From an uncultured Actinomycetes bacterium (GTDB lineage Bacteria > Actinomycetota > UBA4738 > HRBIN12): a stretch of 64,000 bases of DNA. The notes beneath the pieces are model-generated. The model did not search any database. It was not told the origin of the DNA and saw nothing but the letters and a program-made list of their open reading frames with translations. Where the stretch lies: positions 416,001-480,000 of the forward strand of contig CAVPIB010000004.1 in assembly GCA_963704885.1 (NCBI GenBank). The letters are read 5' to 3'. Positions 56,813 to 63,868 of the stretch are shown in pieces. The translations under genes were made by a program, and so were the position numbers. The stretch's first letter is position 1, and each line of letters opens with the position of its first letter.

Positions 56813-57472
56813 TCACGCGGTCGCGACATCCCCGCGGCCCATGCCAGGCAGCGAGGACTGCCCGACCCCGGCGAACGACAACCGGTGGATCGGCGTTGGG
56901 CCGACACGGTCGAGGACCTCCCAGTGCTCGGGAGTGCCGTAGCCCTTGTTGTGGTCGAAGCCGAACTCCGCGTACCTGTGATGGATGCTCCGCATCAGCC
57001 CGTCCCGGGTGACCTTGGCGACGATCCCGGCCGCCGCGACACTCGCCGCTACCGCGTCGCCCTTCTTGATCCCCAGGGAGGGGCACGGCATGCGAGGGAC
57101 CGGGAACCCGTCCGTGAGCACATAGTCGGGCTCCACGTCGAGCGCCTTCACGCACCGCCGAAGCAACGCGATGTTCGATCGATGGAGACCGCGGGCATCG
57201 ATCACGGGCGGTTCGATCCTCCGGACCGCGAACGCCACTGCACCGGCGACGATCCGTTCGTAGGCGGCCTCGCGCTGCAACCGTGTCAACAGCTTCGAGT
57301 CGTCGATGCCCTCGCGGTCGAAGTCGTGGGGCAGGATCACGGCCGCCGCGACCAGAGGGCCGGCGAGAGCGCCCCGCCCGGCCTCGTCCACCCCTGCGAT
57401 GCGTGCGAACCCTTGATCCCTGAGCGCCCGCTCGTAGCGGTCCAGGTCCAGACCGTACCTCAGTGCAGCCAC
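56813..57472 (-). CDS. rnhB: Ribonuclease HII
   Basis: GVDEAGRG, DSK, KGD, AKVTRD, KGYGT. Confidence 0.96.
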   Translation of the reverse strand: MAALRYGLDLDRYERALRDQGFARIAGVDEAGRGALAGPLVAAAVILPHDFDREGIDDSKLLTRLQREAAYERIVAGAVAFAVRRIEPPVIDARGLHRSNIALLRRCVKALDVEPDYVLTDGFPVPRMPCPSLGIKKGDAVAASVAAAGIVAKVTRDGLMRSIHHRYAEFGFDHNKGYGTPEHWEVLDRVGPTPIHRLSFAGVGQSSLPGMGRGDVATA

Positions 57473-58200
57473 CCCATCCGCGACGGCGGCCAGATGATCA
57501 CGAACGCCTGGCCGATCACGTTGTCGATCGGGATGTACCCGAGGCCGCCCGGCGGCGCGAAGCGCGAGTCCCCCGAATGGTTCCGGTTGTCCCCCATCAC
57601 GAACAGCATGCCATCAGGCACCGTCTGAGGGCCGAAGGACCGTGTATCCGGATCGTCGGAGTTGACCCAAGGCTCGTCGACCTTGGTCCCATCCACGTAG
57701 GTGACGCCCCTGCGGATCTCCCAGGTCTCTCCGGGCAGCGCGATCACGCGCTTGATGAAGTCGTCGTCGTCGTGTCGTACCACGCCTATCCCCTCGCCCA
57801 GCCAATGCAGCACGCCGTCCAGGACCCCACGATCGTGCGGGGTGGGCGTCGGGTCGGCGAAGACGACGATGTCCCCGCGTTCGATATCGCCGAAGCGGTA
57901 CGCCAGCCGGTTCACCAGGATCCGATCGTCCTTCGTGAGGGTGGGGATCATGGATCCCGAGGGGATATAGAAGGCCTGGATCAGGAACGTCTTGATGATG
58001 ATGGCGATGACGAGCGCGGAGATAGTGAGGATCCCCATCTCGCGGAGGAACCGCCAGCCGGCGTTGGGGTGTTCGTGGGGGGAATCGCTGGGTGCCGATC
58101 TTGGCTCGTAGCTCGGTTCGGAAATCAGTTCGAGATCTGGCAGCTCGGGTGAAGGTGTTGCGGCTAGCGGCTCGGACGATCCCGGCGGGCGGTCACCCAC
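57460..58200 (-). CDS. lepB: Signal peptidase I
   Basis: IPSGSMIPT, FIKRVIA, MGDNR, DSR. Confidence 0.94.
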   Translation of the reverse strand: MGDRPPGSSEPLAATPSPELPDLELISEPSYEPRSAPSDSPHEHPNAGWRFLREMGILTISALVIAIIIKTFLIQAFYIPSGSMIPTLTKDDRILVNRLAYRFGDIERGDIVVFADPTPTPHDRGVLDGVLHWLGEGIGVVRHDDDDFIKRVIALPGETWEIRRGVTYVDGTKVDEPWVNSDDPDTRSFGPQTVPDGMLFVMGDNRNHSGDSRFAPPGGLGYIPIDNVIGQAFVIIWPPSRMGWLH

Positions 58201-58204
58201 CCGG

Positions 58205-58810
58205 TCAGCCCTCGGCCTTCTCCTCCGCCTCGCCGGCGGACACGTCGGCGGCCTCGTCCGCGGACGGCTCGTCTACGGGAGCGTCCACCGCGTCATCGGC
58301 TCGATCGATCTCGGCGACCTCGTCGGTCCGAGGAGCGGCCTGGGACTCGTCAGCAGCTTCGGGCCCGGCCGCGGCTTCGATCGCGGCCTCTTCATCCCCG
58401 GCTTCCGCGGCTTCGGCCTCGGCGGCAGCCATGGCCGCCGCCTCCATCGCAGCGAGCTTAGCGTCGTCGATCCGGCGCTCCTTGATGCGGGCTTTCTTCC
58501 CGCGCAACTCGCGCAGGTAGTAGAGCTTGGCCCGGCGGACCCGTCCTCGCGAGACGATCTCGAACTGGGCGATAGACGGTGAATGAAGCGGGAATGTTCG
58601 CTCCACGCCAACGCCGAACGAGATCTTGCGAACCGTGAACGTCTCGCGAAGACCGCCGTTCTGTCGTCGGATCACCACGCCCTGGAACACCTGAACCCGC
58701 TCGCGACTCCCCTCAACCACCCGCACGTGCACCTTCAAGGTGTCGCCTGGGCGGAAGTCCGGGATGTCCGAGCGCAGATAGGGCTGCTCGACGAGATCGG
58801 TCTTGTTCAT
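58205..58810 (-). CDS. rplS: 50S ribosomal protein L19 with an acidic C-terminal tail
   Basis: [28 protein letters not shown]. Confidence 0.97.
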
Positions 58811-58857
58811 GACAACGGTGCGCGATTGTACCAGTCGCCCCTCTCAGCCCAGACGGG

Positions 58858-59538
58858 CTAGTCGTGTTCTTCAAGCAGGTCGGGTCGGTTTCGTCGCGTC
58901 TTCTCACGGGCGGCTTCGCTCCGCCACCGCTCGATCTCGGCGTGGTCGCCGGAGAGCAAGACCGCAGGGACCTCGAGTTCGCGGAAGCTGCGAGGGCGGG
59001 TGTAGTGGGGATGATCGAGGAGCCCCTGGACCCCGAACGAATCCTGCTCGAGCGAGGCCTCCTTCCCGATGACACCTGGAACGAGTCTGGTGACGGCTTC
59101 GAGCACTACGAGGGCCGCTACCTCGCCCCCGGACAGTACGTAGTCTCCAACAGACACCTCCTCGGCCGACAGGCCCTCCACCACCCGTTCATCCACGCCC
59201 TCGTATCGCCCACAGACGAGGACCAGCGATGGCTCGGCGGCGAGGTCTCGGACCGATACTTGGTCGAGTCGCCGCCCCGCGGGCGAGAGCAGGATCGTGC
59301 GTCCCCGATCGGCTCCGAGGGACTCCACGGCCGCGAAGATCGGCTCCGGCTTCATCACCATCCCCGGCCCTCCCCCGAACGGCTCGTCGTCCACCTGGCG
59401 GTGCCGATCGTCCGTGAAGTCGCGGATGTCATGGATCCGGACGTCCAAGATCCCCGCGTCGATCGCCCGCCCCAGGAGGCTCTCCCGGAGCGGGCTCTCG
59501 AAGATGCCGGGGAAGATGGTGAAGATGTCGACCCGCAC
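58858..59538 (-). CDS. trmD: tRNA (guanine37-N1)-methyltransferase
   Basis: GGGPGM, CGRYEGVDER, GDYVLSGGE, YTRP, SGDH. Confidence 0.97.
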   Translation of the reverse strand: MRVDIFTIFPGIFESPLRESLLGRAIDAGILDVRIHDIRDFTDDRHRQVDDEPFGGGPGMVMKPEPIFAAVESLGADRGRTILLSPAGRRLDQVSVRDLAAEPSLVLVCGRYEGVDERVVEGLSAEEVSVGDYVLSGGEVAALVVLEAVTRLVPGVIGKEASLEQDSFGVQGLLDHPHYTRPRSFRELEVPAVLLSGDHAEIERWRSEAAREKTRRNRPDLLEEHD

Positions 59539-59844: not shown

Positions 59845-59873
59845 CGGTGGGCACGGCTCCATCACGCTCTAGC

Positions 59874-59889
59874 CGTGATCCCCGTCACC
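59874..59889. promoter_or_regulatory. CRP-like box
   Basis: CGTGA-tccccg-TCACC; TACCGT -10 at 59913-59918. Confidence 0.6.
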
Positions 59890-59930
59890 GGGCGCGCCCG
59901 ACGCGGTTGCGCTACCGTCCGCCCTCGGAG

Positions 59931-62213
59931 GTGGTCGCGATCGGAGCCGAGTTGAGCCTGCTGTTGGTCCTCGCCGTCGCTGCGGTCGGGATGGGGGCGG
60001 TGTGGTCCCGCACCCGCCGGCGGGTGCGGATCGACGCGGTCCTGAGTGATCGCCTGTCCACAGCGCCTCCGCGGGACATCGACGTGTGGGAGGCGGTTCG
60101 TGTGGCGATCCGGGTCCCGCCCAAGGAGGGCGAGCTCTGGAGCATCCTCGATGAACGGACGGATCCCGCGCGTTTCCGACCCAAGCTCGCCGACGATGTG
60201 GAGATCAAGCGGTTCCCGCTCCGGTGGGGCAACGACTACGCCATGGCCGCGAACCCTCGAGCGATGCTGTTCTTCCGACTCGAACCGTGGGAGGTCGATC
60301 TCCTCGAGCTGATGGACGGGAGCCGGACGGTCGCGGAGATCGTCGTCGACCGGATGGAGGAAGAGGGCGATCTGGACGCGGGTGCCGCCACTGGGCTCGT
60401 CATGGCGCTTCAGAGCGGCGGATTCTTGGATCCCCATCCCCCCGACGTCGAGGGATCGCTCAAGGATCATCTCGATCCCGCCTCTACCGCACGGCGCAAG
60501 CTCAGGACGTTCGCCAAGACCCTCTCGATCGACTGGAGCGGGGCCGATCATCTGGTCAAGTGGTGGTATCGGAACCTGCTCCGCTGGTGCTTCACGCGCG
60601 TCGGTGCGAGCGTCGCAGGGCTCGCCGCGATCGGCGGTTTCGTGGCCTTCATCGCCGTCGAGCGAAGTGGTCGGTTCGGTTTAGGAGACAGCTCAGCACC
60701 TGCCGAGTCCCTGATCCTCCTCGGCCTTTCCTTCGTGCTCACCTTCGCACACGAGCTGGGGCACGCCGTGGTGCTCACGCACTACGACCGACGGGTCAAG
60801 AGCGCTGGGTTCATGATCTACTTCGGGTCCCCGGCATTCTTCGTCGAGGCCTCGGACGGATTGATGCTCGACCGTGGCAAGCGCATCGTCCAGTCCTTCG
60901 CCGGGCCCTTCGCGGAGCTAGTGCTCGCAGGGCTCGCCTCCGTCTACCTCCTCGTGTTCCCCGAGTCCTCGGTCTCGGGTGTCCTCTTCAAGTTCGCTCT
61001 CCTCAACTACTTCGTGATCTTCCTGAACCTGATCCCGCTTCTCGAACTGGACGGCTACTGGATCCTCTCCGACCTCATCCAGGTCCCGGATCTGCGTCCA
61101 CGGTCCCTCGCGTTCATCCAGCGCGACCTCTGGCACAAGCTCCGAACGCGCGAACGACTCACTCCGCAAGAGCTCGGGCTGGGCCTCTACGGTGTGATCG
61201 GGATCGCGTTCACGATCGTCTCGCTGTATTGGGCGTACTTCTTCTGGCAGGAGATCTTCGGCGGACTGATCTCCGCGCTGTGGAACGGCGGGACGGTGTC
61301 GCGGCTCCTGCTGGTCTTGCTCGGGTTGTTCCTCGCCGGCCCGGCACTCAGGGGAGCGATCTCGCTCGGCCGTGTGATCGGTCGTCGCATCCGAGCGGTC
61401 TGGCGCCGGATCCGGTTCCGGACCGAGTCGAGATGGAGGGTGGAAGCCGGAGGACTGATAGACGAGCTCCCGGCGTTCGACGACCTTCCGGTCGAGGTCC
61501 TGAACGATCTCGCGGGGCGGGTCTCGTTGCGCAGCGTGCGCTCGCTACAGCCGGTGTTCCGCCAAGGCGAACGACCGACCGGGTTCTACGTAGTGAGGTC
61601 GGGTCGCGTCGGGATCGAGGAGGAGGATCCTGAGACGGGCGATACCCAGGTGCTGCGCGTCATGTCGCGGGGTGACTCGTTCGGCGAGCTGGGTCTCCTG
61701 GAGGCCGCGCCCCGATCGGCGACCGCGCGAGCGATCGACGAGTCCGAACTCTTCGAGATCGACAAAGGGACGTTCGACCGGCTCCTCGCCGACTCGATCC
61801 ACGCGCCGAAGTTCGCGCCGACGATGCAGACGTTGATGGAGCTACGGGAGCTGCCGGTGTTCTCGGGACTCGGGTCGGCACCGCTCTCCGAACTCTTGGC
61901 TCACGGCGGATGGATCACGGCACCCCCGGGGCAGGAGTTGATAACCCAAGGGGAGGAAGCCGACGCTTTCTATGCGATCCGCTCAGGCCAGGTCGACGTC
62001 TCTCGCGACGGTGACCACGTCGCGACCCTCGGGCCGGGTTCATACTTCGGTGAGATAGCTCTCCTCAGGTCCTCTCCGCGCACCGCGACGATCGTCGCCC
62101 GCACCCCCCTCCGCGCCTTCAGGCTCGACCGGGAGGGGTTCGACCGCGTGATAGCAGACGCGTTCCGTCGCGGAACCCTGAAGACGGCCGCCGGCAGAAC
62201 GTGGCAGCATTAG
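59931..62213 (+). CDS. PqqD/RRE-like domain + M50 intramembrane zinc metalloprotease + two cNMP-binding domains
   Basis: N-terminal TM anchor; FFRL...LLELMDGSRTVAEIV...LQSGGFL; HELGH, FAGP, NLIPLLELDGY; FGELGLLEAAPRSATA and YFGEIALLRSSPRTAT. Start GTG 59931 is inferred (frame open from 59847). Confidence 0.85.
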   Translation: MVAIGAELSLLLVLAVAAVGMGAVWSRTRRRVRIDAVLSDRLSTAPPRDIDVWEAVRVAIRVPPKEGELWSILDERTDPARFRPKLADDVEIKRFPLRWGNDYAMAANPRAMLFFRLEPWEVDLLELMDGSRTVAEIVVDRMEEEGDLDAGAATGLVMALQSGGFLDPHPPDVEGSLKDHLDPASTARRKLRTFAKTLSIDWSGADHLVKWWYRNLLRWCFTRVGASVAGLAAIGGFVAFIAVERSGRFGLGDSSAPAESLILLGLSFVLTFAHELGHAVVLTHYDRRVKSAGFMIYFGSPAFFVEASDGLMLDRGKRIVQSFAGPFAELVLAGLASVYLLVFPESSVSGVLFKFALLNYFVIFLNLIPLLELDGYWILSDLIQVPDLRPRSLAFIQRDLWHKLRTRERLTPQELGLGLYGVIGIAFTIVSLYWAYFFWQEIFGGLISALWNGGTVSRLLLVLLGLFLAGPALRGAISLGRVIGRRIRAVWRRIRFRTESRWRVEAGGLIDELPAFDDLPVEVLNDLAGRVSLRSVRSLQPVFRQGERPTGFYVVRSGRVGIEEEDPETGDTQVLRVMSRGDSFGELGLLEAAPRSATARAIDESELFEIDKGTFDRLLADSIHAPKFAPTMQTLMELRELPVFSGLGSAPLSELLAHGGWITAPPGQELITQGEEADAFYAIRSGQVDVSRDGDHVATLGPGSYFGEIALLRSSPRTATIVARTPLRAFRLDREGFDRVIADAFRRGTLKTAAGRTWQH

Positions 62214-62242
62214 CATGGCCAGACGACGAGAGGATCTGCGAG

Positions 62243-62455
62243 ATGGACTGTTGGCACTGCCGCCGAACCTCCGTCGGCGTCTGTCGGTTCTGCGGACGAG
62301 GGGTATGCGAAGACCACGCGCAGACGCAGCCCTACATCCTGGAGCTGTTCAAGACCACGGAGATCTCACGCGCGATCGTCGTGGAGGACGCGTTGTACTG
62401 CGGTGCGTGCTCCCCCCGCCCCGACCCCGTGGACCTGCCCGAACTCGACGTGTGA
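62243..62455 (+). CDS. 70-aa Cys-rich putative two-zinc protein (DUF2180/B-box-like spacing)
   Basis: CWHC, CRFC, CEDH, CGAC; GAGG upstream of ATG 62243. Confidence 0.75.
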   Translation: MDCWHCRRTSVGVCRFCGRGVCEDHAQTQPYILELFKTTEISRAIVVEDALYCGACSPRPDPVDLPELDV

Positions 62456-62536
62456 CGCACGTCACATCTCGGTGTGCTGCACGTCACAACATCCCTTGTG
62501 TTGGAGGACACCCAAGCATCGGTGACGCACGACACC
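62451..62536. promoter_or_regulatory. Array of four CRP-like boxes
   Basis: TGTGA-cgcacg-TCACA (62451, perfect), TGTGC-tgcacg-TCACA (62473), TGTGT-tggagg-ACACC (62497), GGTGA-cgcacg-ACACC (62521). Confidence 0.78.
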
Positions 62537-62627
62537 CTCGATCCGCCTCGTGAAGCGCAAGATACGCGCATCGAAAGACGGCCCTGGACCCGAGAAGGGT
62601 CGGAGAGCGACGGAGGAGGTGAACCTG

Positions 62628-62780
62628 ATGGCAGAGAAGAAGATCTCGCCGGTCGCCCCGGATGGCGCCCGCGCCGCTGAGGAGCCCGCCGCTCGCGTGA
62701 CCAAGAAGCAGACCATGAAGAAGCTCAGCCACAAGAAGCTCAGCCACAAGAAGCTCAGCCACAAGAAGTTGTCCAACTAG
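62628..62780 (+). CDS. Lys-rich repeat peptide 1 (50 aa), candidate precursor: MAEKKISPVAPDGARAAEEPAARVTKKQTMKKLSHKKLSHKKLSHKKLSN
   Basis: SD GGAGGAGGTG 6 nt before ATG; paralogous with 62949-63074. Confidence 0.8.
   Translation: MAEKKISPVAPDGARAAEEPAARVTKKQTMKKLSHKKLSHKKLSHKKLSN
62718..62777 (+). repeat. 15-bp coding tandem repeat (KKLSH)
   Basis: AAGAAGCTCAGCCAC x3 plus the variant AAGAAGTTGTCCAAC. Confidence 0.95.
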
Positions 62781-62797
62781 GACACTTCCGCAAGTGC

Positions 62798-62850
62798 CAC
62801 ACCCCCAGATGGGCCCGGCACGCCGGGCCCATCTGCCATCAAGGGGTGTG
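62798..62850 (+). terminator. Strong hairpin between the two peptide genes
   Basis: CAGATGGGCCCGGC/GCCGGGCCCATCTG inverted repeat (62806-62835), extended by CACACCCC/GGGGTGTG; no U tract. Confidence 0.6.
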
Positions 62851-62862
62851 ACGCGAAACACA
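62847..62862. promoter_or_regulatory. CRP-like box upstream of peptide 2
   Basis: TGTGA-cgcgaa-ACACA. Confidence 0.65.
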
Positions 62863-62948
62863 ACGTTTCCGAGACGCCCATCACCGGCGGACCCGGGCTC
62901 CGCGAGGGACCATCGGCTGACGACGGACCGGGGGGAGGTGGAACCGAG

Positions 62949-63074
62949 ATGGCAGAGAAGCGGATCACACCTGAGAAGCCCAAGGCCGCGGGGTCGAAGG
63001 CGGTAGATCGAACCGCTGAGCGCAAGAGCTTGAAGAAGATCTCGCGCAAGAAGATCTCCAAGAAGAAGCATTAG
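62949..63074 (+). CDS. Lys-rich repeat peptide 2 (41 aa), candidate precursor: MAEKRITPEKPKAAGSKAVDRTAERKSLKKISRKKISKKKH
   Basis: Translated by hand (not in the ORF track); SD GGAGGTG; N-terminus and KK(I/L)S repeats shared with peptide 1. Confidence 0.8.
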   Translation: MAEKRITPEKPKAAGSKAVDRTAERKSLKKISRKKISKKKH

Positions 63075-63092
63075 CGAGCGTTCAAGCGAAGC

Positions 63093-63119
63093 ACGGGCCC
63101 GGTCTTCGACCGGGCCCGT
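63093..63119 (+). terminator. Terminator-like hairpin after peptide 2
   Basis: ACGGGCCCGGTC-ttc-GACCGGGCCCGT, perfect 12-bp stem. Confidence 0.7.
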
Positions 63120-63160
63120 TCCGTTGGTGACGATCCGTTCGCCCGACTAGGCTACGCCAG

Positions 63161-63868
63161 ATGGCGAAGGCTGCTGCCGCGACGACCGCTCTCGAGAACG
63201 CGCTCATCGGCTCCCCCTACCTGCGAGACGTACCAAGGCCGGCGGTCGCAGGACTGGCCGAGCGTTGCCTTGTCCGCCATTACCGTCGCAATACATACCT
63301 CTGCCATCAGGGCGACCCGGCGCCGGACGTCTTCTTCCTCCTTGAGGGCCGGGTCGAGATCAGCTCTGTTGCAGCCAACGGCAGCCGCGTGCTGCATGCC
63401 ACGCTCGACACTCCACAGTTCCTCGGGGAGCTCGGTGTCCTGGGCGATATCGCCCGGACGGCGAGCGCATTGGCGCTCGAGGACGTCACCATCGCGGTCG
63501 TGCACTCCGAGGACTTCCTGTCCTTCCTCACGCAGGAACCCTCAGCCGCGCGGAACGTACTCAGGGCGCTCGCCCGTCAGGTTCACGCTGACCAGTCGCT
63601 CGTGGACGACCTGCTCTTCCTCGACCTCAAGGGACGGGTAGCCAAGCGCCTGCTCCAGATGGTGACGCCCAGCCTCGACGATCTGCCCGATAACGGGGTC
63701 GTGGTCCCGACCGTCACGCACGCAGACCTCGCCAGCCTCTGCGGAGGCAGCCGCGAGAACGTCACCCGGGTCCTCAGCGAGTTCCAGCGTCGAGGCCTCG
63801 TCGACAAGGACGGGCGGCGCTACGTGCTGAAGAAGGTCGATGGCTTGGCGAAGATCGCCGGTCTCTGA
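63161..63868 (+). CDS. Crp/Fnr family transcriptional regulator (cAMP receptor type)
   Basis: GELGVL...ARTASA cNMP pocket; HTH recognition helix SRENVTR; TAGGCT 7 nt before ATG. Confidence 0.92.
   Translation: MAKAAAATTALENALIGSPYLRDVPRPAVAGLAERCLVRHYRRNTYLCHQGDPAPDVFFLLEGRVEISSVAANGSRVLHATLDTPQFLGELGVLGDIARTASALALEDVTIAVVHSEDFLSFLTQEPSAARNVLRALARQVHADQSLVDDLLFLDLKGRVAKRLLQMVTPSLDDLPDNGVVVPTVTHADLASLCGGSRENVTRVLSEFQRRGLVDKDGRRYVLKKVDGLAKIAGL

Follow-up and report, generated by a model that had tools for sequence, protein, structure and literature searches.

In a 64,000-nucleotide stretch of contig CAVPIB010000004.1 from an uncultured Actinomycetes bacterium, hereafter the window, two small neighboring genes, pep1 and pep2, are confirmed by sequence comparison as genuine, translated-looking members of a family that is undescribed in the literature we searched. 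They lie between a gene for a predicted membrane protease and a gene for a Crp/Fnr-family regulator, with a short zinc-finger gene next to the protease; the protease carries a recognition element (RRE) of the kind known from peptides (RiPPs) that ribosomes synthesize and that are modified after translation, and two cyclic nucleotide monophosphate (cNMP)-binding domains. The system is defined by CRP boxes, cNMP domains, and the Crp gene, none of which figured in the first-pass annotation of this DNA. Our strongest inference is that pep1 and pep2 are the top-ranked predicted Crp targets, because CRP boxes are rare genome-wide and conserved boxes stand ahead of the peptide genes. Judged from sequence and structure models, the module appears to work like a pair of RRE-dependent leader peptidase and precursor. 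The reading we favor, tentatively and at slightly below even probability, is that Crp bound to cyclic AMP (cAMP) induces the peptides and that the cAMP-sensing RRE-protease binds their N-terminus and releases a polycationic tail that works intracellularly.

A small-protein family with repetitive cationic tails

The open reading frame (ORF) listing bears out the coordinates and plus strand given earlier for both genes: pep1 (62628–62780, stop included) encodes 50 amino acids and pep2 (62949–63074, stop included) 41. The translated pep1 ORF reads MAEKKISPVAPDGARAAEEPAARVTKKQTM followed by three KKLSH units and one KKLSN; it begins with MAEKKISPVAP, has the junction AARV / TKKQTM before the repeats, and carries a net charge of 0 in its N-terminal part and +10 in its tail. 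The full translation of pep2 is MAEKRITPEKPKAAGSKAVDRTAERKSLKKISRKKISKKKH, with MAEKRITPEKP as its start and RKSLKKISRKKISKKKH further on. Each ORF is preceded, 8–9 nt upstream, by a GGAGG ribosome site, and the near-identical initiation regions described in the first-pass annotation are present (GGAGGTGAACCTGATG and GGAGGTGGAACCGAGATG). Tandem Repeats Finder reported an array of the 15-nt unit AAGAAGCTCAGCCAC in pep1 (3.4 copies, 100% matches; 62718–62768) and a weaker 15-nt repeat in pep2 (63032–63068). The recoding of the fourth KKLSx unit of pep1, with TTG TCC vs CTC AGC, is likewise real. The two peptides had been called paralogous: each is a strong match to the family profile (E = 2.6e-19 and 2.5e-15, searched in one genome), but their pairwise likeness is weak (BLASTP E = 0.044; 14 of 38 residues identical). 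They are the sole two copies in their own 3.0-Mb genome.

A search of 5.8 billion proteins returned 15 relatives, none of which carries a functional name, and a locus search with pep1 alone returned 2 loci. In the sample of the class, the 15-member profile matched in 164 of 294 genomes (68 of 109 of high quality; 51 of 78 genera), a count that takes in 15 unpublished genomes. Pfam and NCBIfam gave no family for pep1 or pep2, the lone row, TIGR01847 (E = 0.59), being noise, and the ESM Atlas gave no usable match for pep1. No signal peptide was seen in pep1 or pep2, and both are hydrophilic.

The family has a common architecture: an N-terminus of the form MA(E/D)KK(I/V)xPKxP, a spacer, the junction A(A/T)RV(T/S)K, and a tail of polycationic tandem repeats that is hypervariable. 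A(A/T/S)RV directly precedes the tail in 20 of the 34 peptides examined, and the net charge of the tail is +6 to +12 in 32 of 34, the exceptions being the two peptides of locus L080 (+3 and +1). More distant cassettes keep KKIxPKxP and ATRV before quite different tails. The arrangement of two genes, pep1 and pep2, recurs in genomes G002, G012, G165, and G026. The resemblance is more than chance: the reading frame is kept in homologues across many genera, changes between pep1 and its two closest full-length orthologues are mostly synonymous (11 synonymous to 3 nonsynonymous and 12 to 6), and tails differ in length by whole repeat units. The units include KKLSH, KKVSR, KKLGH, KRVHA, KKL, KKM, QTK, VRG, and SKALG, together with units of 8–10 residues in metagenome loci, and at least three tandem units were found in 36 of 71 metagenome loci. 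The tails evolve through repeat turnover. The pep2 orthologue of G002 (L004:865-1008; compare 62949–63071 in the window) bears a pep1-type tail of three KKLSH units and KKLAK, a pattern that points to gene conversion between the paralogues or to an exchange of repeats.

Metatranscriptome contigs from four libraries of four studies, which represent relatives of 85–93% likeness, cover the pep1 ORF in 4 of 4 cases and the pep2 ORF in 2 of 4. Within 62200–63200 this cover is confined to the peptide ORFs, and we read nothing into its absence over the zinc-finger gene, the spacers, and the start of crp; the share of words recovered in the sequencing-run search was small (0.05–0.12) and supports no claim on habitat or strain. 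We regard the cover in relatives as a weak hint that pep1 and pep2 are expressed.

A conserved cassette and its predicted control by cAMP

The order protease, zinc finger, peptide gene or genes, and Crp was found at 19 of 22 genome loci. A scan of metagenomes with the zinc-finger alignment found 330 relatives, and among the best 80, which were kept, the protease lies upstream in all 33 loci long enough to tell, and 35 of 36 have Crp downstream; the pattern for family peptides matched at 64 of 71 loci, 5 more were recognized by eye, and L102 and L139 show none. For genomes of the same order that were sampled by both the peptide profile and the protease, a peptide occurs in 21 of the 22 with the protease (17 by profile, among them the unpublished genomes G029 and G037, and 4 by ORF scan; the remaining one is G035, which gave no clear call) and in 0 of the 9 without it, counts that kinship makes descriptive. 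Across the phylum, 47 of the 401 sampled genomes have the protease. On the points by which the first-pass annotation could fail, homologous ORFs exist, their frame is conserved, and the link with the protease gene is nearly complete.

The cassette is flanked on one side by trmD-rplS-lepB-rnhB and on the other by rimM-rpsP-ffh, all on the opposite strand. Neither the cassette nor its conserved flanks contain a modifying enzyme, an exporter, or an immunity gene. As read from gene order, it is a core syntenic module, order-wide and beyond, set among translation genes, and not a patchy biosynthetic cluster. The cassette interrupts a usually contiguous ffh-rpsP-rimM-trmD-rplS-lepB-rnhB cluster (57460–59538 in the window; L095:888-3665). 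In G006 and G004 (L031 and L032) trmD follows crp, and the insertion point varies between genera.

The peptide genes are preceded by sites of the CRP type, TGTGA-N6-TCACA. A perfect box (TGTGACGCACGTCACA, 62451–62466) overlaps the 3′ end of the zinc-finger gene and stands 177 nt ahead of pep1; a second box with one mismatch (62473–62488) follows 22 bp after it, and two weaker box-like sites, seen by eye at about 62497 and 62521, continue in 24-bp steps. The start of pep2 is preceded at 102 nt by the box TGTGACGCGAAACACA with one mismatch (62847–62862). These are the only three boxes with at most one mismatch in the window, all of them ahead of the peptide genes. The 3.0-Mb genome has 3 perfect boxes (0.75 expected from composition), of which one precedes pep1, and 26 boxes with one mismatch. 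At orthologous loci the perfect box is conserved in position and tandem boxes 22–24 bp apart recur. A box with at most one mismatch was found within 300 nt upstream of 26 of 28 peptide genes at the 22 genome loci, a count including 3 extra peptide copies between a gene for an Nramp transporter and one for an acyl-CoA synthetase, and a box is present in 62 of 71 metagenome loci. By sequence, then, the upstream site and its conservation in orthologues are those of a CRP/GlxR-type regulon.

The regulator gene downstream (63161–63868, plus strand) encodes a cNMP-binding domain (cNMP_binding, 2.5e-20) and a Crp helix-turn-helix (HTH_Crp_2, 2.3e-15; Crp, 7.7e-8). The class-III nucleotidyl cyclase domain has 24 matches in the same genome; several of these lie inside ORFs of more than 1000 amino acids, and the cAMP/cGMP repertoire is unusually large for the genome size. 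The other two perfect boxes of the genome form a tandem pair 34 bp apart (G000:C1:717584-717633; L176:2585-2634). The pair adjoins a downstream 414-residue FAD-dependent reductase-like ORF with an N-terminal GxGxxG, which at a guess might be of the geranylgeranyl reductase type.

Both peptide ORFs are followed by GC-rich hairpins on the plus strand. The one behind pep1 (62806–62835) has 13 bp and is terminator-like without a U tract; the minimum free energy of 62781–62850 is −44.7 kcal/mol (z = −6.95), and 0 of 200 shuffles equal it. The one behind pep2 (63093–63119) has 12 bp (−32.2 kcal/mol, z = −3.60; 1 of 200 shuffles equals it). Rfam gave no family across 62000–63400 at E up to 1. A sigma-70 scan saw no promoter and a terminator scan found a single weak site on the minus strand, with consensus patterns that fit this high-GC organism poorly. 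With boxes ahead and a hairpin behind, each peptide gene is, on the sequence features, its own monocistronic unit.

The same arrangement could be that of attenuation-type upstream ORFs, rich in Lys and Arg codons, which would control hairpin read-through into crp while the peptide itself had no function. Strong hairpins directly 3′ of each ORF, the crp gene downstream, and tails that are runs of few codons fit this scheme. We find it hardly credible: codons in the N-terminus and junction change synonymously while the protein sequence there is kept, tails that are Lys-rich in some lineages contain Arg, Gln, or Gly in others, pep1 is followed by pep2 and not by the regulated gene, and the extra copies precede unrelated genes. 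A slim chance falls to the peptides being small-protein regulators of the module, whether as activators, inhibitors, or decoys of the RRE or as Crp binders giving cAMP feedback. Their genes always lie between those for the sensor-protease and Crp, and their conserved N-terminus would serve as a docking motif; a precedent is the 15-residue SpfP, which is reported to bind Escherichia coli CRP (PMC8916003). Docking, however, needs no long polycationic repeat tail of constant composition.

The RRE-protease, the zinc finger, and related systems

The first gene of the cassette (59847–62213, plus strand) encodes a 788-residue fusion of an RRE, an HExxH intramembrane metalloprotease, and two cNMP-binding domains; its true start may lie further in, as orthologues align from about residue 40–90. 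Pfam finds cNMP_binding (1.2e-43, two stretches) and Peptidase_M50 (9.1e-8; 32.1 bits vs a cut-off of 27.2). The best NCBIfam match is daptide_HExxH (NF041824; 2.2e-48, 165.3 bits vs a cut-off of 300), below equivalog level, and the YydH/LiaK model (NF058609) also matches (2.8e-12, 46.9 bits vs a cut-off of 225). The zinc-binding motif HELGH (60747–60761, plus strand; residues 301–305) and its partner NLIPLLELDG (residues 404–413), of the form NxxPxxxxDG, are kept in all 78 of 78 loci. Both motifs lie within hydrophobic segments and the M50 match is above its cut-off, as in a site-2-type (M50-like) metalloprotease. Six predicted transmembrane segments separate the RRE from the cNMP domains, an even number that would place the two on the same side of the membrane.

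Sequence models detect the RRE (PqqD-fold) domain (60174–60437, plus strand; about residues 110–197) only weakly (Pfam PaaA-like_N, 0.09; PqqD, 0.19). An AF2 model based on 19 orthologues has a pLDDT of 84–90 over the domain and the order beta-beta-beta-alpha-alpha-alpha. In a Foldseek search against the PDB the top 13 matches are all RRE proteins, including TbiB1-leader, PqqD, lasso B1, LynD/TruD, and TigE, with a best E of 4.8e-3 (TMt 0.69) and none below 1e-3. VIA comparison gave Z values of 11.2 (6jx3_B; root-mean-square deviation 2.4, 82 of 85 residues), 11.1 (5v1u_A), and 10.6 for lasso B1/TbiB1-leader complexes and 8.8 for PqqD. The modeled domain, with a three-stranded sheet and three helices superposable on RRE-leader complexes, accordingly has the RRE fold. 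By analogy with those complexes, it may bind the conserved N-terminus of the peptides. A prediction of the complex from the RRE part (residues 1–125) of the protease alignment and the peptide alignment scored 0.00 vs a mark of 0.32; its controls were not folded, and it counts neither way.

The two cNMP-binding domains (PF00027; 61530–62156, plus strand; best stretch, residues 562–649) have the canonical phosphate-binding cassettes FGELGLL..PRSATA and FGEIALL..PRTATI. A strict pattern for this cassette finds at least two motifs in 37 of the 75 loci that reach the end of the second domain, a figure that reflects the limit of the pattern and on which we base no claim. The same domains match TIGR03896 ("bacteriocin-type transport-associated protein") below its cut-off (7.2e-8; 32 bits vs 161).

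The zinc-finger gene (62243–62455, plus strand) encodes a 70-residue double zinc-finger protein that is DUF2180-like (Pfam, 7e-5; 23.3 bits vs a cut-off of 22.2). Columns in an alignment of 27 orthologues have a mean identity of 77%, C3, C6, C14, C17, C22, H25, C53, and C56 are invariant, and the acidic C-terminal tail is conserved as PRPDPxDLPELD (PRPDPVDLPELDV in the window). Its conservation greatly exceeds that of the protease (63–67% vs 35–40% identity). Its AF2 model has a pLDDT of 81.5, and a Foldseek search of the PDB with it gave scattered zinc-ribbon and ribosomal matches (best E = 1.5) with no usable fold assignment. The ESM Atlas returned only DUF2180-like or unnamed clusters from Actinomycetota and Chloroflexota.

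The closest parallel to the protease is found in daptide biosynthesis. Ren et al. report that what led to the daptide clusters was a fusion with the RRE on the N-terminal side of an intramembrane site-2 protease, and that this peptidase removes the leader (10.1101/2023.03.08.531785). As in the daptide system (MpaA; MpaP/DapP), the RRE here is N-terminal to an intramembrane protease of the HExxH type. Also shared are the phylum, Actinomycetota, and the presence next to the protease of one or more small genes resembling precursors, with a conserved N-terminal and a variable C-terminal part. Daptides differ in having DapB/C/D/M-type enzymes and a C-terminal Thr that is converted to Dmp: we found no aminotransferase, methyltransferase, or ADH genes in the cassette or flanks, and the last residue is Asn in pep1 and His in pep2, so that neither belongs to the daptide class. 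Their cores are hydrophobic helices, in contrast to the polycationic repeat tails seen here, and the two cNMP domains, the Crp gene, the CRP boxes, the DUF2180 zinc finger, and the core syntenic location are additions of the present system. The epipeptide system of Bacillus (YydF/EpeX with YydH/LiaK, or EpeP) similarly combines a homologous HExxH membrane metalloprotease with a small precursor nearby, but has a radical-SAM epimerase and an ABC exporter that are missing here, and its regulation and added domains differ.

A further link to RiPPs comes from two divergent loci, L087 and L088, where the peptide slot holds a longer protein with an N-terminal leader of the Os1348 family in the NHLP clan (NF038399, 57.1 and 46.5 bits, cut-off 40; compare Frankia_peptide, PF14407) and a Lys-rich (AASKVAGSK)n tail; in L087 the residues A-S-R-V stand before the repeats. 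Next to this protease, a Lys-rich repeat tail can thus be headed interchangeably by the short MAEKK motif or by a RiPP-leader domain from a curated family. The window peptides differ from NHLP leaders in that they do not match these models and their conserved N-terminal part is about 11 residues long.

Against this background, the proposal that pep1 and pep2 are RiPP precursors holds in part. In its favor are the conserved N-terminal part before a variable repeat core, the RRE-bearing, leader-peptidase-like neighbor, and the NHLP leader in a related slot. Because the cassette is a core syntenic module and neither it nor its surroundings encode an exporter or a modifying enzyme, the terms "post-translationally modified" and "antimicrobial" lack support; nor do the peptides fit the strict RiPP definition, in which a co-encoded enzyme modifies the core, the 70-residue zinc finger being no known modifying enzyme.

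It is quite improbable that the peptides are exported antimicrobial or bacteriocin-like precursors, RiPP or unmodified, that the RRE-protease matures for an exporter encoded elsewhere. Conserved leaders with hypervariable cores are typical of bacteriocins, some tails resemble cationic antimicrobial peptides (RRWSF repeats in L126; the KKVAKKLAKKH type), and the subthreshold TIGR03896 match points the same way. The closest characterized relatives of the protease, moreover, are reported to mature membrane-active antimicrobial RiPPs, namely daptides and epipeptides. The absence of exporter, immunity gene, and modifying enzyme from the cassette and flanks speaks against this, as does a distribution that is core and not patchy, and many of the tails, such as (QTK)n, (VRG)n, (RAT)n, and (SKALG)n, are poor membrane-active sequences.

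A proposed mechanism and its rivals

The gene structure, the family, the synteny, the CRP boxes, the RRE fold, the intact protease, and the cNMP motifs are established here; the favored reading builds on them and would run as follows. A rise in cAMP would lead Crp to bind the tandem TGTGA-N6-TCACA boxes and switch on each peptide gene, as the conservation of the motif suggests. The membrane protease, encoded two genes upstream, would sense cAMP through its two cNMP domains, a role implied by the domain architecture. Its cytoplasmic RRE would bind the peptide N-terminus, and a cut near the junction motif would free the tail, in line with the architecture and with homology to RRE-dependent leader peptidases. 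The freed polycation might then, more speculatively, act on an intracellular polyanion, be it nucleic acid, the ribosome, polyphosphate, or the inner face of the membrane, for as long as cAMP signals. Action inside the cell is suggested by the core, syntenic nature of the module and by the absence of an exporter, a modifying enzyme, and a signal peptide.

Several observations weigh against this reading. Site-2 proteases usually cut hydrophobic segments, and pep1 and pep2 are fully hydrophilic; for a ligand of an RRE, their N-terminus is also poor in hydrophobic residues. At least as leader-like is the zinc-finger tail PRPDPxDLPELD, which could be what the RRE truly binds. The exact junction motif is absent from 14 of the 34 peptides, and the repeat periods of 3, 4, 5, 8, 9, and 10 residues share no amphipathic register by eye. 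The association is imperfect: peptide copies lie far from any protease at three loci, at the divergent locus L089 no peptide gene adjoins the protease and zinc finger, and one divergent clade is without CRP boxes. The substitution pattern is also mixed, for the pep1 comparisons with L023 (3 of 6 pairwise) show no clear synonymous excess (4 synonymous to 8 nonsynonymous, 10 to 7, and 10 to 7), and ungapped pep2 comparisons, meaningful only at equal lengths, are mostly nonsynonymous (4 to 26, 4 to 28, and 5 to 28).

In a rival reading the peptides would be stand-alone basic proteins of the CRP regulon that bind nucleic acid, ribosomes, or polyphosphate at full length and unprocessed, and the protease would act elsewhere, for example on the zinc-finger protein through its acidic tail. 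The tails have charges of +6 to +12 and drifting units, as in polyanion binders; the L087 tail weakly matches the histone H1-like NF038053 (6.5e-5) and Pfam HC2 (1.4e-5), both below cut-off; the cassette sits inside the rpsP-rimM / trmD-rplS translation cluster; extra copies keep a CRP box with no protease nearby; and the cassette has no exporter or modifying enzyme and a zinc finger more conserved than the protease. There are known proteins of comparable character. RMF of E. coli is small, very basic, and induced by cAMP-CRP in starvation, and the Lys/Ala repeat polycations of Hc2 and HU tails compact nucleic acid. They differ from the present peptides in lacking any sequence relation, pep1 and pep2 having no family matches, and in having no known leader-like N-terminus or dedicated RRE-protease. 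We consider the stand-alone role somewhat unlikely. It leaves unexplained why the tail can vary so freely behind 11 N-terminal residues and a junction that are conserved, why the peptides co-occur almost perfectly with a homologue of RRE leader peptidases, and why an NHLP leader replaces the N-terminus in one clade; and ribosomal and nucleoid families gave no match to the window peptides at E up to 1.

Bolder, and in our judgment unlikely, is an extension of the processing mechanism to a housekeeping, nonantibiotic RiPP machinery. The cAMP-gated protease would mature Crp-induced precursors into intracellular polycations that condense or silence the nucleoid, ribosomes, or polyphosphate when this widespread uncultured lineage goes into cAMP-signaled starvation or dormancy, with the highly conserved DUF2180 zinc finger as an adaptor or co-substrate.

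If cAMP-gated release of the tails is correct, the protease would be the first RRE-dependent leader peptidase wired to a second messenger, through its cNMP domains, the CRP boxes, and the adjacent Crp, and the first such machinery to form a conserved core module and not an accessory antibiotic cluster. The peptides offer a concrete, top-ranked candidate output gene for cAMP-Crp in a large uncultured lineage of soil and sediment Actinomycetota. They also represent a small-protein family that evolves by repeat turnover and is often missed or unnamed in annotation; DUF2180 gains a testable context, and RRE-based genome mining can reveal signaling systems besides natural products. Neither the cassette nor DUF2180 nor any RRE protease fused to cNMP domains was described in the literature we searched, though supplementary RRE-family tables (daptide, RRE-Finder) might list the protease family.

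Some variants of the cassette depart from the common form. In the divergent clade L082–L086 the peptides start with MAAKKPAKRAPAKKA and end in repeats. L082–L088 lack CRP boxes and instead share, within the first 60 nt or so behind the zinc-finger gene, GCAAG, a short GC hairpin, and GTCT(G/A)G before the peptide gene, a conserved element that could be a different operator or an RNA motif of the 5′ untranslated region. At L078 (G424:C35) two peptide genes directly follow the protease, with no zinc-finger or Crp match nearby, and at L080 (G383:C116) the zinc-finger gene lies upstream of the protease and the tails of the two peptides are nonrepetitive and partly acidic. Among the flanking genes of the window, that for ribosomal protein L19 (58205–58810, minus strand) encodes an acidic C-terminal extension of about 85 residues, rich in Ala, Glu, and Asp, which is unusual for bL19.

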